From the IMG/VR virus record IMGVR_UViG_3300045988_044506: a stretch of DNA of 41,511 nt. One strand, 5' to 3'. Of this stretch, positions 3,506-35,442 are shown in pieces. Every line of letters begins with the position of its first letter. The stretch's first letter is position 1. Made by a program: the position numbers and the translations under genes. The DNA comes from a virus. Below the pieces are notes generated by a model that made no database searches, was not told the origin of the DNA, and was given only the letters and a program-made list of their open reading frames with translations.

Positions 3506-3909
3506 GAATTACGATTCCGGGCGCTCCAAGGGGCAAGGCGCGGCCTAGAGTGACTAGGAGGGGAACTTATACCCCGGAGGAAACACGGCGCTACGAGGAG
3601 CTTGTGAGAGCTTGCTGGGCGAAAGCGGGAGGGGAGCGGTTTAAGGACGATACCGCGCTGAATGTGCTTATTATGGCATGGTTTCCCATTCCTCAAAGCA
3701 CCAGCAAGGCGAGGCGGCTGGGAATGCTGCTGGGGCGTATCCGCCCAGCCAAAAAGCCGGACTGTGACAACGTGGCAAAGATCATTTGCGATGCGTTGAA
3801 CGGATGCGCGTACAAGGATGATGCACAAATTGTACGCTGTACGGTAATCAAGTATTACTCGGAGACTCCGAGAGTCGAGGTAGATATACAGGAGGTAAAG
3901 CATGAATAA
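3502..3909 (+). CDS. rusA: RusA-family Holliday junction resolvase
   Basis: Motifs GKARPR near the N-terminus and KPDCDNVAKIICDALNG..YKDDAQI. GGAGG RBS. Confidence 0.85.
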   Translation: MRITIPGAPRGKARPRVTRRGTYTPEETRRYEELVRACWAKAGGERFKDDTALNVLIMAWFPIPQSTSKARRLGMLLGRIRPAKKPDCDNVAKIICDALNGCAYKDDAQIVRCTVIKYYSETPRVEVDIQEVKHE

Positions 3910-4480
3910 CAAGTATGAATTTACGAGTGACACGTTAGTCACAGATGACGGTGCTGTACTCCACAGGATAAAAGCGCGGATCAGCTTTGCGGGTGTCCGC
4001 GAGGGAGACCTGGGCGGCTGGGTCGAAAATGAAAAAAATTTAGACGTGTCCGGCAATGCGTGGGTGTACGGCGATGCGCAGGTGTCCGGCAATGCGCTGG
4101 TGTACGGCAATGCGCGGGTGTCCGGCGATGCGCAGGTGTCCGGCGATGCGCTGGTGTCCGGCAATGCGCTGGTGTACGGCAATGCGCAGGTGTCCGGCAA
4201 TGCGCGGGTGTCCGGCAATGCGTGTGTGTCCGGCAATGCGTGGGATGTCTCGCCGCTCCAAATCCAGTCGTCTAAATATTACGTCAACATGGCAAGTGCG
4301 ACTGAGTTGCGCATCGGCTGTCAGGTGCATACGATCGCATGGTGGCTTGAAAATAATGAACGGCACGCCGCCGAGACAGGAGAAACGCCTGAATTTGCGG
4401 CTGAAATGCGCCTATATATCGAGCTGGCCGCAAGGAGATATGCGCCGGAATTGCTGGAACTTGCGGCCGATGAACAGTAA
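3902..4480 (+). CDS. Hexapeptide-repeat protein (left-handed beta-helix-like) with 11 tandem VxGxAx units
   Basis: Repeats VSGNAW VYGDAQ VSGNAL VYGNAR and so on. GGAGG RBS. Confidence 0.7.
   Translation: MNNKYEFTSDTLVTDDGAVLHRIKARISFAGVREGDLGGWVENEKNLDVSGNAWVYGDAQVSGNALVYGNARVSGDAQVSGDALVSGNALVYGNAQVSGNARVSGNACVSGNAWDVSPLQIQSSKYYVNMASATELRIGCQVHTIAWWLENNERHAAETGETPEFAAEMRLYIELAARRYAPELLELAADEQ
4046..4243 (+). repeat. 18-bp tandem DNA repeat (GTGTCCGGCAATGCGCTG-like), 11 units
   Basis: Read directly. Not CRISPR: the units are contiguous, with no spacers. Confidence 0.85.
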
Positions 4481-31408: not shown

Positions 31409-32479
31409 TTACAGCGTAGCAGAATCGTAGCATCTCTCCAAAATTGAGCACAGATCGTCCCGTTTGGATTTATAAAGATGGGAGTAAACGCGGAGTGTTA
31501 CAGTCACATTTTCGTGGCCTAAACGCTCTGCTATGAGCAGTGGCTGCACCCCCTGGTCTATCAGCATCGACGCGTGAGAATGTCGGAGATCATGCACCCT
31601 GATGATCGGCACACCTGCCTTAACGCAGTTGCGCTTGCAGTGGTTGCGGAGCATAGACGCGCTTGCACCCTCGAATAGCCTACCGCCTGACATTGTGGCG
31701 ATAAGCGGGGCTAATTCCTCCTGCAAAAAGTGTGGGATTGATACAACTCTGACGGAGCTTCCAGTTTTAGGCACTCCGATAATTTCTTCTCCGTTCAGCT
31801 TTATGTAGGTTTTGGTAATGGATATTTTACCGTCGCTCACATCCTCTGGTGCAAGCGCCAGCAACTCGCCCTCACGCATACCCGTCCAAAACAATGTATC
31901 GAAAGCAACCTTCATAAGCTCGTTTTGCTCACAAGCACAGAATTTGGCATACTCCTGCACGGTCAGAAATTTCATTTCTCGCTTTTTTTCATTTCTCTTT
32001 TCGGCGACTGCGTTTGTGCATGGATTTGACGGCAGTCCATATAACCGGACAGCAAAGTTAAAAATGCTCGATAACCTCGATTTCAACATAGCGGTCGTCG
32101 TTTGAGATAGTTTCCCTCCGGTTATGCGCGATTTCCGGTTTTGCAGATCGCTATACCACTTGCGTACAGCCAGTGGCGTGACGTCTTGCACTGCGGTTTT
32201 TCCAAACGCTGGGCGCAAACTCTTTTCTACCGCGAATACGATGGACGAGTATGTCGTAGGCTTTACCCTTGTCTTTGCGTCCTCGAGATACAGATCAAGC
32301 AGCGACGACATTGACATTGATAGACTGCCATTCATCTTTTGCAAAAATTCGCGCTCGTACTGCTGGGCTTCTCGTTTTGTTGGAAAGCCCTCTTTTTTCT
32401 TTTGTTTTCGCGTCCCGTCAAAGGTAGTATATCTACAGGTCACCTTCCAACGCCCGTCCGGCATTTTCGATACGCTCAT
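31409..32479 (-). CDS. int: Tyrosine integrase (phage integrase family with an N-terminal arm-binding domain)
   Basis: Motifs HDLRHSHAS ... LGHENVTVTLRVYSHL (the R-H-R-Y catalytic pattern). N-terminal PDGRWKV...FPTKREA AP2-like domain. Confidence 0.92.
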   Translation of the reverse strand: MSVSKMPDGRWKVTCRYTTFDGTRKQKKKEGFPTKREAQQYEREFLQKMNGSLSMSMSSLLDLYLEDAKTRVKPTTYSSIVFAVEKSLRPAFGKTAVQDVTPLAVRKWYSDLQNRKSRITGGKLSQTTTAMLKSRLSSIFNFAVRLYGLPSNPCTNAVAEKRNEKKREMKFLTVQEYAKFCACEQNELMKVAFDTLFWTGMREGELLALAPEDVSDGKISITKTYIKLNGEEIIGVPKTGSSVRVVSIPHFLQEELAPLIATMSGGRLFEGASASMLRNHCKRNCVKAGVPIIRVHDLRHSHASMLIDQGVQPLLIAERLGHENVTVTLRVYSHLYKSKRDDLCSILERCYDSATL

Positions 32480-33075
32480 AACTTATGCACCACCGATGTT
32501 GTATAACTCGCCTTACCGTCCATGACGGCCGCACGACCTTTGCGCAGGCCGTCTCGGAAAGTCTCCACATCTGGCATGACGCGGTCTGTGCTGACCAGTA
32601 GGCCGTTCGCGCTGGCTGTCTCGTACAGGGTGTCAATCAGGGATGCGACCGCCAGACGCATTGTCATGGGGAGGTGATCTAACATCACAAATTCTTCAGA
32701 CTGAGCGCCGATGTTGGAGCCGTGTTCGCCAAACACTAAAAAATCGAATTTTCGCACGGCGCGGTCCGATGCGACATTGCCTATATAGTGTAGCGCTGCA
32801 CGGCGCAGCTCGTCGATGCTGCTATTCCGCGTGAGCGTGTACACATCCGGGTAAAGATACTCCAGCACGGAGGTCAGGGCGTCAACGCTAAATAGGTCAA
32901 ACCACGAGATAAACTCATCGACGCGAGGAGCTGTCTGCCCGGACTCGTACTTGTCCCACGTCCTCAAATCTACACCGATCATCTCGGCCATTTTATACTT
33001 CGGTAGGCCGGTTCGCGCTCTCAATTTTTGTAGCACAAGAGCACATCCACTTCGTAATTCTTCCCTCGTTCTCAT
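32476..33075 (-). CDS. XRE-family transcriptional regulator co-transcribed with int (ATGA overlap)
   Basis: N-terminal HTH segment LRARTGLPKYKMAEMIGVDLRTWDKYESGQ. AAGGAG RBS. Confidence 0.7.
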   Translation of the reverse strand: MRTREELRSGCALVLQKLRARTGLPKYKMAEMIGVDLRTWDKYESGQTAPRVDEFISWFDLFSVDALTSVLEYLYPDVYTLTRNSSIDELRRAALHYIGNVASDRAVRKFDFLVFGEHGSNIGAQSEEFVMLDHLPMTMRLAVASLIDTLYETASANGLLVSTDRVMPDVETFRDGLRKGRAAVMDGKASYTTSVVHKL

Positions 33076-33137
33076 AACTTCACTCCTTTTATGTAAAAAA
33101 TTGCGGTAAATTTTGCTTATGTCCCCTCGTTATATCC

Positions 33138-33166
33138 ATTAAAAGGATAAATGATTTCTTGTACAA
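33138..33166 (-). promoter_or_regulatory. Candidate promoter TTGTAC-17-TTTAAT for the regulator-int operon
   Basis: Read directly. The -10 is weak. Confidence 0.3.
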
Positions 33167-33190
33167 TAACGCTCAAAGGGGGAGTAGAGG

Positions 33191-33364
33191 ATGAATTATC
33201 GTATAAAAATAGCCGAACATCCTGAATATGCAGACGCCCTTGTCGCAATGTTTGGAACGGACGATATAGGTCGCATATCTGAGCAGGATGCTCGGCTGTT
33301 CTGGCACTACGTTGTGCCAGAGTTAAATGATGGTCAGTTTATGGGTAATGATCCGGTCACTTGA
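33191..33364 (+). CDS. Small hypothetical protein (57 aa)
   Basis: Strong RBS AAAGGGGGAG. Below the ORF-track size cutoff. Confidence 0.4.
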   Translation: MNYRIKIAEHPEYADALVAMFGTDDIGRISEQDARLFWHYVVPELNDGQFMGNDPVT

Positions 33365-33605
33365 TATTCCAAGAGTAACCGCAATTCTGGCAAAGGCAGA
33401 CTTTCTGATTCTCGAATTTTGTCTTTTCGTTTCCGGTTGACTTTTTCCAGAATAGATTGCTGATACCAAGTGTGCTCAATCCGACAACAGTCCGTGCCGC
33501 ATTGTTGACGTGGCCGCCAAACCCGATACCCTTTTTCGCGGTCTTACTAGCCGTCTGTTCCATCGAGATAGTTACATTTTCGCTTTTGCACTTAGGACAA
33601 ACCAT
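33357..33605 (-). CDS. Double zinc-ribbon protein with a central hydrophobic segment (82 aa)
   Basis: Motifs CPKC...CQNC. Convergent with, and overlapping, the previous ORF. Low GC. Confidence 0.5.
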   Translation of the reverse strand: MVCPKCKSENVTISMEQTASKTAKKGIGFGGHVNNAARTVVGLSTLGISNLFWKKSTGNEKTKFENQKVCLCQNCGYSWNIK

Positions 33606-33688
33606 TTTAATCACCCACAATTTTATAAATTTGCATAGCCAGCGTCGAACGAATGTGCTAGACTGTGACCATACTCCTATACACGGAA

Positions 33689-33717
33689 TTGATTAGTTAA
33701 AACATCTGTACTATAAT
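33689..33717 (+). promoter_or_regulatory. Near-consensus sigma-A promoter TTGATT-17-TATAAT
   Basis: Read directly. Drives the three-gene small-protein operon. Confidence 0.55.
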
Positions 33718-33731
33718 GAGAGGAGAAAACA

Positions 33732-33851
33732 ATGAGAGAGACCACTGAAAGCCGATTACTTACCCCCGACGAATTTAAAACGCTGGTTTGCAGCCTGAGT
33801 GCTGACCAGATCGATAGGATCAACGATATGCTAGGAGGAATTGCAAAATGA
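33732..33851 (+). CDS. Small soluble protein (39 aa)
   Basis: RBS GAGAGGAG. Its stop overlaps the next start (ATGA). Confidence 0.45.
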   Translation: MRETTESRLLTPDEFKTLVCSLSADQIDRINDMLGGIAK

Positions 33852-33991
33852 GAATTGCTAGTGTTGCCTGTACCATTAGTATGTGTGTTGTCTGCGTGTT
33901 GCAGGCAATCCGGCTGTATCAGTCGTGGAAAAAATACGGTGAATCCGATGAGTGGAAGAAGATCGAATCATCGCTTGAACTGGAGGAATAA
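33848..33991 (+). CDS. Small single-TM protein (47 aa)
   Basis: RBS TAGGAGG. Hydrophobic segment IASVACTISMCVVCVLQAI. Confidence 0.45.
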   Translation: MRIASVACTISMCVVCVLQAIRLYQSWKKYGESDEWKKIESSLELEE

Positions 33992-33993
33992 AA

Positions 33994-34305
33994 ATGAGTC
34001 TGATTAACATAGTGCTATGCCTTATCAGCTTTGGAGCGATCTTCTCCGGGCTTTGCATTCAGATTTTCATGCGGCTTCATAATCGAAAAATTGCCGAATC
34101 TTATGGACAGGTATACCAGTTGGATGACGGTACAACGGTCATTTTCGACAAACATTGCAGCATCAGGCTAGAGAAGGGCGGCAAAGAATCCATTAGTGTC
34201 CATGACTCCCGAAAGAGTGAGGACGGCGTGGGTACGTTCTTCTGCGGGTGCCTGACCGGCTTTGGATTTGCCATGCTTTCGGTCGTCTGCGTGTTGCTCC
34301 GATAA
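33994..34305 (+). CDS. Two-TM membrane protein (103 aa)
   Basis: RBS TGGAGGAA. TM segments at the N- and C-termini. Confidence 0.55.
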   Translation: MSLINIVLCLISFGAIFSGLCIQIFMRLHNRKIAESYGQVYQLDDGTTVIFDKHCSIRLEKGGKESISVHDSRKSEDGVGTFFCGCLTGFGFAMLSVVCVLLR

Positions 34306-34308
34306 AAG

Positions 34309-34608
34309 TCATCGGAAGAAAAGCCCCAGAACGGACGCCAGAGCCGCAACAGCGGCTATTCCAGCGGTGATCCTAAAGCGCCGCGTTTGAATACGCTTTT
34401 CTTCAAGCTCCTTCAAACGATCTTCTCCATATCCGGTAATAAGCGCTCGCTCCTGACCCTTTAGCGGGCCTTTCTGAGCGATGCCGAGGGAATGGATAAG
34501 GTTCTCGTTCAAGAGGATGGATGCATTCTTACGGTTCTTTTCGGTGATCTGCAAACCATTTTCTGACTGGCTTTTTAGCAGCAGTCGATATTCCGTTGAC
34601 TGTCTCAT
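34309..34608 (-). CDS. C-tail-anchored membrane protein co-transcribed with the repressor. Candidate superinfection-exclusion protein.
   Basis: C-terminal TM segment ITAGIAAVAALASVLGLFF. Its start overlaps the repressor stop. Confidence 0.5.
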   Translation of the reverse strand: MRQSTEYRLLLKSQSENGLQITEKNRKNASILLNENLIHSLGIAQKGPLKGQERALITGYGEDRLKELEEKRIQTRRFRITAGIAAVAALASVLGLFFR

Positions 34609-35132
34609 TTCTCACCCACAACTGCATCAACAACAGCCAGAATGCGCCGTCTATCTTCCTCAGACGCATTCTCATACCGCTCGACCAAGCGCTTTGCGCC
34701 ATCACTCAAACCGTCGCCCTTCGGGGCGGCGGTTTTTTTGTCGTTTCCGCTCAGTCCCATGAGGTAGTCGGGCGATACCCCAAAGTAATCTGAAATTTTT
34801 CTGATTGTTGTATCTCTCGGGGTTCTCCCCGCAGCCCAGCCAGTAACTGCCGCGCTTGTGCATCCTATTGCGAGAGCAACGGAATTGGGCGTGTCCCCGT
34901 TTTGAGAGCAAAGGTAACACAGATTTCGATAAAAAATACTTGGCTCAAAATCGCTCAGGTCATCCGGGTCAACATTGAAATAGTTCGCTATTTTGTAAAT
35001 TGTTTTGCTTCTTGGATTTGCCCCGTTCTTCCACTGAGTAACGGAAGCTGGAGAAATGCCAAGCTCAGTTACAACCGCGGTAGGGGATTTGCTATTTTTG
35101 ATACACAAGGCCGTAAATCTATCCCAAAACAT
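34605..35132 (-). CDS. cI-like lysogeny repressor with two tandem XRE-type HTH domains
   Basis: Two HTH_XRE-like segments. Divergent from the early promoter region. Confidence 0.75.
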   Translation of the reverse strand: MFWDRFTALCIKNSKSPTAVVTELGISPASVTQWKNGANPRSKTIYKIANYFNVDPDDLSDFEPSIFYRNLCYLCSQNGDTPNSVALAIGCTSAAVTGWAAGRTPRDTTIRKISDYFGVSPDYLMGLSGNDKKTAAPKGDGLSDGAKRLVERYENASEEDRRRILAVVDAVVGEK

Positions 35133-35182
35133 GGCAAAGTGATCTCCTTAAAAATAAAACTAAAAAAATATTACAAAATGTA

Positions 35183-35211
35183 TTTACAAACTAATATAAA
35201 TATATTATAAT
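35183..35211 (+). promoter_or_regulatory. Early promoter TTTACA-17-TATAAT, copy 1 of a duplicated 34-bp promoter/operator element (35180..35213)
   Basis: Identical apart from one mismatch to 36733..36766. Confidence 0.6.
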
Positions 35212-35295
35212 ACACCCAAGAAGCAAAAAACTAAAGTTACTATACTGAATATAGCACAACAAAAACCAAAAGGCAACATATAGGAGGAAATAAAA

Positions 35296-35442
35296 ATGAG
35301 ATGGGTTATCGAGTACACACCGGAAGGCAGCGATATGTGGCAGCACGCCTACTGCGATACCGAACAGGAAGCATATGAAGGAGCCGCGTATCTGGAATCT
35401 GTCGGAGCCGACATAACAGCGATATTTGAGCTGGATTATTAA
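35296..35442 (+). CDS. Small acidic hypothetical protein (48 aa), first early gene
   Basis: RBS TAGGAGG. Confidence 0.45.
   Translation: MRWVIEYTPEGSDMWQHAYCDTEQEAYEGAAYLESVGADITAIFELDY

Follow-up and report, generated by a model that had tools for sequence, protein, structure and literature searches.

A convergent operon predicted to end inside the repressor gene of a temperate gut phage, and its possible role in prophage induction

In the 'extended arbitrium' phages of Bacillus, AimX is a helical, highly divergent protein of 29-80 amino acids (aa) whose gene is convergent with, or overlaps, that of AimC; it binds the C-terminal oligomerisation domain of AimC, and the phi106 family has a LexA site upstream of it (Kabel et al. 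2025, bioRxiv 10.1101/2025.11.23.689978). The SinI/SinR pair of Bacillus subtilis sets a small helical protein against an XRE-type helix-turn-helix (HTH) repressor via the C-terminal helical multimerisation domain of the latter (PMC3163267), and trans-acting antirepressors under LexA control are known from coliphage 186 (Tum) and from the Gifsy prophages (PMC3121763). We analysed the 41,511-nucleotide stretch of IMG/VR record IMGVR_UViG_3300045988_044506 (the window), which is a whole temperate phage of 41.5 kb, and describe an operon of three small genes, orf39-orf47-orf103, that lies in its lysogeny module and converges on the repressor gene, rep175, and the adjoining orf99. The layout matches that of AimX/AimC, and we therefore read the conserved unit into which the operon is inserted, tentatively and at somewhat less than an even chance, as an SOS-linked induction arm of the lysis-lysogeny switch, in which orf39 would be an antirepressor and the membrane proteins passengers. 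An earlier note on this DNA had proposed an AT-rich moron island with a constitutive-type promoter and small membrane proteins typical of exclusion, abortive-infection or toxin-like modules; its observation was partly confirmed and its interpretation partly supported.

Using the HTH199 and orf57 proteins as handles, we retrieved about 20 related lysogeny modules; L-numbers (L005, L010 and so on) denote the related loci compared with the window. DNA searches of phage collections gave no informative relative, and a scan of genome contigs with HTH199 returned a distant Planctomycetota match only, a result that was not used. A 41,447-bp contig with the same gene set recurs in human-gut metagenomes. 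In L031 the phage is integrated within a 110-kb contig beside nrdD, yabP and yqfD, and because yabP and yqfD (with nrdD) flank this integrated copy, we take the host to be a spore-forming Firmicute; the host group of these phages is gut Clostridia-type bacteria. The module fills the region between the integrase gene (int) with HTH199 on the - strand and the repressor with its divergent early promoter, in the order int, HTH199 (-), orf57 (+), zn82 (-), promoters P1 and P2, orf39-orf47-orf103 (+), and orf99 with the repressor (-) (Table 1).

Table 1. Features of the lysogeny module in window coordinates.
Feature	Coordinates	Strand	Description
HTH199	32476-33075	-	199-aa HTH protein; conserved backbone; translationally coupled to the integrase gene (31409-32479)
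Palindrome	33133-33149		TATCC-N7-GGATA in the HTH199/orf57 divergent region; overlaps an orf57 promoter-like site (33139-33167)
orf57	33191-33364	+	Acidic, conserved 57-aa protein
zn82	33357-33605	-	82 aa, basic (net charge +8); one zinc ribbon of four Cys; variable slot
P1 remnant	33646-33664	+	LexA-box-like CGAACGAATGTGCT (33646-33659; core 7/8) abutting a -10-like TAGACT
P2	33689-33717	+	TTGATT-17-TATAAT; 6/8 box AAAACATCTGTACT (33699-33712) abuts the -10
orf39	33732-33851	+	39 aa, acidic, soluble; member in every operon-bearing lineage; candidate antirepressor-like regulator
orf47	33848-33991	+	47 aa; N-terminal transmembrane helix (1-24) and charged tail; accessory
orf103	33994-34305	+	103 aa; transmembrane helix, four-stranded beta-meander, second transmembrane helix; orphan
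orf99	34309-34608	-	Tail-anchored (C-terminal transmembrane) protein; start overlaps the repressor stop; translationally coupled to the repressor gene
rep175	34605-35132	-	Repressor; two HTH domains, linker, two-helix C-terminal tail of ~30 aa; no peptidase domain
Terminator	34708-34745	+	Intrinsic terminator of the operon transcript; antisense in the repressor linker codons (KKTAAPKGDG)

The convergent unit predicted here, made up of a boxed promoter, a small open reading frame (ORF) and a terminator within the repressor gene, is common to all the related phages. In operon-less relatives, which carry none of the three operon genes (L011, L012, L015-L018, L020, L025 and others), one small ORF of 45-58 aa stands on the + strand at the same place, in four unrelated sequence types; these relatives have small ORFs of types B, C and D. 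With its 3' end, the small ORF reaches about 80-150 nt into the 3' end of the repressor gene, whose product lacks a cleavage domain, and it stops ~30 nt short of the terminator. A GAAC-N4-GT[T/G/A]C box that agrees with the core at 7-8 of 8 positions lies 52-59 nt upstream of the ATG of the small ORF. P1 of the window, where the region reads CGAACGAATGTGC and then TAGACT, is homologous to the promoter that drives this ORF, and the orf39 cassette, together with P2, starts directly after the -10 of this ancestral promoter. All three operon genes occur together in the window lineage only. An orf39-like gene is joined to an orf103-like gene in L006, in L010 (46% and 33% identity, respectively) and in L023/L024, and orf39 with an orf47-like gene occurs, without orf103, in L021 and L042; homologues of orf39 were thus found in L006, L021, L010 (E 8e-8), L023 and L042.

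The anatomy on which this comparison builds agrees in many points with the earlier note. All five ORFs that it listed (57, 82, 39, 47 and 103 aa) are present, and those of 57, 39, 47 and 103 aa were also predicted by independent public gene callers. Its strong ribosome-binding sites correspond to the Shine-Dalgarno motifs GAGAGGAG, AGGAGG and GGAGG, and Kyte-Doolittle analysis recovered the one transmembrane (TM) segment it had assigned to orf47 and the two in orf103. The ATGA-coupled starts it described hold for orf39/orf47 only, as orf103 starts 2 nt past the orf47 stop. The note had overlooked orf99, the P1 remnant and the + strand terminator.

The operon transcript is predicted to end inside the repressor gene. 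Downstream of orf103, a single strong terminator was found on the + strand; it consists of a 12-bp stem with eight G-C pairs, a TTCG loop and a T-run (z = -5.2), and no convincing + strand terminator was found between the orf103 stop and position 34708. Given the lack of an earlier terminator, the + transcript is expected to run antisense through orf99 and then through the final ~100 nt of the repressor gene, and the predicted overlap of the operon and repressor-orf99 transcripts amounts to ~430 nt. A hairpin of 9-15 bp with a T-run stands at this + strand position in all ten repressor variants examined, L025 with its different linker sequence included. Pairs were counted on fold-derived registers and not on the MAFFT alignment, in which L025 is shifted by one register; in-register pairing reached 115 of 120 pair cells, as against 39-79 in slid registers, and double-sided compensatory changes occurred in six of the 12 pairs. 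In six of seven lineages the hairpin beat 99.2-99.9% of synonymous recodings of the 12 residues (1-8 of 1000 resamplings reached it). This covariation, together with a stability beyond that of synonymous recodings, argues that the hairpin is selected at the nucleotide level. A search of Rfam with 32900-35400 gave no match.

The same geometry raises the possibility that RNA or transcription itself is what matters: transcription from P1 and P2 might interfere with the repressor-orf99 transcript, or form a ~430-nt duplex with its 3' part, and thereby lower the expression of repressor and orf99, the small ORFs being secondary. A predicted overlap of the two units kept in all lineages, a terminator position under nucleotide-level selection and the mere 3 nt that separate the stop codons of the convergent orf103 and orf99 would all suit such a mechanism, and the same idea was first proposed for aimX/aimC. 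We nevertheless regard it as quite unlikely. The tested arbitrium phages needed the AimX protein, antisense RNA being insufficient, and the three operon genes show coding constraint, with ratios of non-synonymous to synonymous substitution rates (dN/dS) of about 0.33-0.39 for orf39, 0.39 for orf47 and 0.42 for orf103, and keep their ribosome-binding sites. The terminator, moreover, confines the overlap to the tail codons, so that polymerase is kept off the repressor promoter.

We next turn to the promoters. The TTGATT-17-TATAAT sequence reported in the earlier note is present as P2, although a match alone is not significant, as five promoter-like matches were found against 4.2 expected. P2 is kept in L006, L010 (TTGAAA-17-TAAAAT), L024 (TTGACA-18-TAAAAT) and L042; since it stays at the same distance from the orf39 homologue while the proteins are only 26-46% identical, we consider it a real promoter. 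Its box and -10 read AAAACATCTGTAC, then TATAAT, and the same box geometry is seen in L010 and L024. The operator of LexA in Firmicutes (Bacillus)/Clostridia is GAACN4GTTC or GAACN4GTTT (PMC4234289). A perfect box lies inside TTGACT-17-TATTAT in L011, L012, L016 and L027; among the five promoter variants with a box, relatives of four show 7-8 of 8 core positions and L020 shows six, for a background rate of the box of 0.049 per 130 nt. The box directly adjoins the -10 in all these promoter variants, P1 and P2 of the window among them. The constitutive character ascribed to P2 by the earlier note is not supported, as a GAAC-N4-GTNC-type box adjoins its -10 with the geometry of the LexA-box promoters of the relatives. 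Nor is P2 controlled by the immunity-specific repressor, because the window and L005 share the same P2 and orf39 and differ in their HTH domains. P1 further overlaps the -35 of a promoter-like site for zn82 on the - strand. Elsewhere in the group, a perfect 14-bp palindrome, TGAACTAAAGTTCA, with a perfect GAAC-N4-GTTC core was observed at 8477-8490 of L017 and 8541-8554 of L012, in the early region, where it separates the two HTH genes of a second divergent pair; this suggests a second SOS-type or operator-controlled node in these two loci.

The presumed target, rep175, is of modular build. On the basis of Pfam and PHROGs, only HTH families are found in it, and a single-sequence AlphaFold2 (AF2) model places HTH domains at residues 2-59 and 64-126, followed by a stretch that lacks regular structure (127-143) and by helices (144-172); the model is of low confidence (mean predicted local distance difference test, pLDDT, 55), which makes this structural part weak. 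The window, L005, L031 and L021 have four different HTH domains, all followed by an identical tail, GLSDGAKRLVERYENASEEDRRRILAVVDAVVGEK. The junction between HTH and tail falls at the linker hairpin (34738 in the window), with chimeras in L005, L031, L021 and L020, so that the terminator hairpin coincides with the recombination junction between the two modules. The L010-type HTH was found with tails T1, T2 and T3b. Each of the six small-ORF types has its own partner among the six tail types, while the HTH types shuffle, L042 being the exception; in these sequences the small-ORF type follows the type of the repressor tail and not that of the HTH domain. As separate observations, the repressor of L031 combines the HTH of L010 with the window tail, and tandem repressor paralogues, one with two HTH domains and one with a single HTH domain and with similar tails, occur in L012 (6659-7603), L016 (3508-4431) and L017 (6595-7539). 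In these tandem-repressor relatives the + strand hairpin lies in the first gene of L012 and L017 and in the second gene of L016.

Read as the induction arm of the switch, the conserved convergent unit would work as follows. Host LexA, or another factor common to these phages, would hold P1 and P2 low in lysogens. Upon DNA damage the small protein would be made and would inactivate the non-cleavable repressor via its C-terminal tail, in the manner of AimX/AimC or SinI/SinR, with orf39 acting as the antirepressor for repressors of the window tail type. The products of orf47 and orf103 would be accessory membrane proteins, co-expressed with orf39 and functionally paired with the repressor-linked orf99; they might relieve or replace a membrane function of the lysogenic state, or arrest the host cell at induction.

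Several features of AimX/AimC recur here. There too a small ORF is convergent with a short HTH repressor and co-varies with it, the layout being the same; orf39, with 39 aa, falls within the 29-80 aa range and is convergent with the orf99-repressor operon. The repressor likewise appears to consist of an HTH part, an unstructured linker and a helical tail, with no autocleavage domain, as far as the weak rep175 model allows. As for the LexA site of the phi106 family, the window has a 7/8 and a 6/8 box, of a kind not enriched across its genome, and relatives have perfect boxes in the promoter. The two systems also differ. Upstream, zn82, orf57, HTH199 and int take the place of aimR and aimP (Pfam returned integrase, HTH and weak zinc-ribbon matches only), and between the small ORF and the repressor of the window lie two genes for membrane proteins on the + strand and one gene on the - strand. 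The transcript here is predicted to end at the linker-codon terminator, whereas aimX transcripts of some arbitrium phages are reported to run through the whole of aimC, and the hosts are gut Clostridia-type bacteria instead of Bacillus. Finally, binding and antirepression are established for AimX, whereas here we infer them from co-segregation, with L042 as an exception.

The other two systems share the logic and less of the anatomy. For SinI/SinR, the same logic is proposed for orf39 and the rep175 tail, although SinI/SinR is chromosomal and not phage-borne. With 186 Tum and the Gifsy antirepressors the likeness is that a non-cleavable repressor and a small protein from a LexA-type promoter would couple induction to SOS; these act in Gram-negative hosts, through CTGT-N8-ACAG boxes and with unrelated proteins, and show neither convergent overlap with the repressor gene nor an embedded terminator. 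Rho-independent terminators in convergent coding sequences also have a G+C-rich hairpin followed by a T-run; the one described here differs in lying in repressor linker codons, in being kept by co-varying codon and amino-acid changes and in its position at a recombination junction. What is unusual compared with known small-antirepressor modules is the combination of an embedded terminator kept by covariation with an orphan pair of convergent membrane proteins.

A number of observations weigh against an SOS-linked antirepressor. LexA-box-like matches are not enriched in the window genome (nine found against 15 expected), and because of this the argument for LexA is one of comparative position; the window boxes are themselves imperfect, with 7/8 in P1 and 6/8 in P2. 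P2, being near consensus, might be constitutive, and HTH199 could bind the GAAC-N4-GTNC boxes instead of LexA. The co-segregation of small ORFs and tails could reflect plain physical linkage. Neither orf39 nor any of five further small ORFs matched SinI (PF08671) in Pfam at E values up to 0.1-1, and the BLAST similarity of small ORFs to repressor tails is weak (E 0.01-1). A homology of orf39 with the small ORFs of the operon-less relatives, hinted at by MAFFT, was rejected by hhalign (2% probability), which leaves them positional analogues only. In L042, lastly, exact orf39 and an orf47-like ORF lie upstream of another small ORF, of type D, in the company of a non-cognate repressor tail, an arrangement which implies that the orf39 cassette can move without the target presumed for it. 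Mimicry of the repressor tail in the manner of SinI was considered as a separate candidate and, at these BLAST values, is kept as speculation.

The operon might alternatively be a lysogenic-conversion moron, as the earlier note had it. Examples of morons and exclusion genes in lysogeny modules are the HK97-type morons, rexAB and sieB of lambda, Sie2009 of lactococcal phages and Ltp of TP-J34, and in phages of Firmicutes superinfection-exclusion (sie) genes classically lie between integrase and repressor. According to this account, which we consider somewhat unlikely, P2 is constitutive, orf47 and orf103 (perhaps with orf39) form an exclusion, abortive-infection or toxin-like module, and the embedded terminator does no more than protect the repressor promoter against P2 transcription. 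It shares with the known examples a low-GC accessory insert with its own promoter, of variable presence, that places membrane proteins between integrase and repressor, the classical sie position; orf99 shares a transcript with the repressor, like rexAB with cI. The presence of the operon indeed varies among syntenic relatives and its promoter is near consensus. Its GC content is deviant: 33100-34610 has 0.454 against 0.528 +/- 0.035 in same-size windows, which is among the lowest 0.6%, so that the drop noted earlier is real, although at about 2 standard deviations hardly a sharp one. L042, moreover, shows that orf39 and orf47 can enter the leader of a different small ORF together as one cassette, and the proteins are orphan and fast-evolving like many that act between phages, with 33% identity where HTH199 is 84% identical.

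Other evidence is less easily accommodated by a moron. Models for superinfection exclusion, abortive infection, toxins and defence in Pfam, PHROGs and PADLOC all remained without a match; nothing above noise was obtained in these three collections for orf57, zn82, orf39, orf47, orf103 or orf99, and for these six proteins PADLOC gave zero families. The universal member of the operon is the soluble orf39 and the membrane proteins are dispensable, which likewise speaks against its defence, exclusion or toxin module. Strong constitutive transcription would cross orf99 and the repressor tail codons in antisense, and in L042 a constitutive P2 would also transcribe the resident small ORF that is controlled by a LexA box; P2 in addition retains the box-abutting -10 geometry of regulated promoters. 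The known exclusion genes differ further in that there is no homology to them, that the operon lies on the strand opposite to the repressor and that it uses a resident terminator and a regulated-looking promoter. The operon has its own promoter, P2, and the next terminator is the resident one, 400 nt past orf103 and inside the repressor gene. The term moron island thus applies insofar as the insert is accessory, mosaic, low in GC, provided with its own promoter and variable among close relatives; it is not free-standing, because it is inserted in a conserved transcription unit which is convergent with the repressor operon and has its terminator inside the repressor gene.

We examined the operon proteins and orf99 individually. 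A profile scan of viral contigs gave no confirmed homologue of orf39. For orf47, which is missing in L006, L010 and L023 and present without orf103 in L021 and L042, we compared the alleles of the window, L005, L031, L037, L043, L021 and L042. The protein occurs in three lengths (47, 52 and 59 aa), with differences confined to the part after residue 46, and the core of residues 1-46 is kept in six of the seven alleles; in L005 a frameshift at an A7 run disrupts the middle of the gene. The 52-aa allele (L031, L037, L043) results from a 1-nt deletion beside the stop, in the Shine-Dalgarno/spacer region of orf103, and overlaps the orf103 start. The orf103 protein has homologues in L010 (E 5e-15) and P0004 and forms three 50%-identity clusters only, among 1.84 billion representatives, all from this phage group. 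Word-indexed searches (single and profile), searches of viral, genome and metagenome contigs and an exhaustive HMMER profile search returned nothing beyond these three clusters, and fold searches with the AF2 model (pLDDT 70) gave no match with E below 0.05; a match to P0005 was discarded as a spurious repeat-protein match. A homology search with orf99 returned its own cluster only. Wherever the downstream flank is covered, a tail-anchored convergent gene stands alongside orf103 (orf99 itself, a gene of 97 aa in L010 and one of at least 67 aa in L023), and in L021 a 52-aa tail-anchored gene lies at the same place, alongside orf47.

This pairing gives room to two further interpretations. One, which we judge very unlikely, makes orf47 and/or orf103 inhibitors of the host in the SOS phase, comparable to YneA, SosA or lambda Kil, or modulators of lysis timing, with orf99 as their antagonist in the lysogenic state and orf39 as a cytoplasmic cofactor and no antirepressor. 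The SOS division inhibitors known from Firmicutes are small single-TM proteins, and the proteins here are small, have one or two TM segments, stand behind LexA-box-like promoters and have a convergent tail-anchored partner in each A-type lineage with a covered downstream flank. Set against this, similarity to such proteins in sequence or fold was not found (Pfam, PHROGs, fold searches), the genes are dispensable in most relatives and the interpretation is speculative. The other, more comprehensive one is that of a two-element switch, which as a whole we rate as unlikely. Its first element would be the linker-codon terminator, doubling as a recombination joint at which HTH modules swap independently of a module of tail, antirepressor and membrane pair. 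Its second would be a two-state membrane device, in which the orf99 type is made with the repressor in lysogeny and the orf103/orf47 type from the convergent induction transcript with its antisense overlap; mutual antagonism of the partners, through RNA, protein or both, would make this a new kind of system for exclusion, addiction or commitment to lysis.

If the induction-arm reading is true, the logic of a small antirepressor and a non-cleavable repressor would reach beyond the arbitrium phages of Bacillus, to arbitrium-free prophages of human-gut Clostridia, whose induction is so far largely unknown. A terminator kept in coding sequence by co-varying codons is a clear instance of dual coding and at the same time the mark of a module boundary in phage mosaicism, and the expression logic of three orphan small membrane proteins, repressor-linked or induction-linked, becomes predictable. 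The locus also advises caution, since a consensus promoter with tiny membrane ORFs in a prophage need not mean a constitutive defence moron.

The stretch from 33606 to 34608, which comprises the promoters, the operon and orf99, differs between the window and L005 at three positions, while the flanks differ by 2-6%; synonymous divergence (pS) is 0.22 in orf57. From this comparison of two sequences, the cassette may have been exchanged recently between the two phages. The 10 substitutions in orf57 against L005 all fall at third codon positions, eight being synonymous and two non-synonymous, and across ~20 loci orf57 is 82-100% identical. HTH199, with weak matches to HTH_31/HTH_3 (Pfam) and phrog_2328, is 70-99% identical in all related loci regardless of the integrase type. 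The divergent pair HTH199(-)/orf57(+) as such is kept in all of them (70-100% identity), again regardless of integrase type, and L010 carries an equivalent, TATCCATGATAAGGATA, of the palindrome between the two genes.

As described in the earlier note, orf57 and the 82-aa zn82 gene are convergent, with an overlap of 8 nt. The double zinc ribbon attributed to zn82 has to be revised: Cys 3, 6, 70, 72 and 75 make up one four-Cys ribbon split by an insert of ~60 aa, in which CPKC (residues 3-6) and CQNC (72-75), plus C70, form a single site. Pfam zinc-ribbon matches to it are weak and under the curated cut-offs. Its dN/dS of 0.04-0.32 in ten pairs indicates that zn82 is a genuine gene under purifying selection. 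Public gene callers skip it in most contigs, probably because of the 8-nt overlap with orf57, and call it in L042 and L043. The gene occupies its slot, which is separate from the operon, in the window, L005, L011, L015, L017, L025 and others, and the slot is empty in L012 and L016.

Some side observations concern the remaining parts of these loci. In L031, the integrase call (3519-4274) covers 251 aa without a match to the catalytic domain, which may reflect prophage decay or an assembly problem. At the other end of the module, an early promoter TTTACA-17-TATAAT (35183-35211, +) faces the likely repressor promoter TTGCCT-17-TATATT with a TG (35276-35248, -); the two transcripts would overlap by ~20 nt in an intergenic region with a GC of 0.24, a face-to-face arrangement as in the switches of phages P2 and 186. 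A Tad2-like protein (PF11195, anti-Thoeris family) is encoded in the early region beside small HTH genes in L025 (6282-6587), L028 (6760-7065), L029 (6277-6582), L032 (6281-6577) and L034 (4982-5287), with none among the matches listed for the early region of the window. In place of zn82, L010 (6804-7753, -) and L021 (5333-6232, -) carry an HNH endonuclease of 175 aa (PF01844, E 5e-14) whose gene is in translational coupling with that of a 142-aa protein carrying a TM segment at its N-terminus, a two-gene cassette that is possibly a defence or moron pair.

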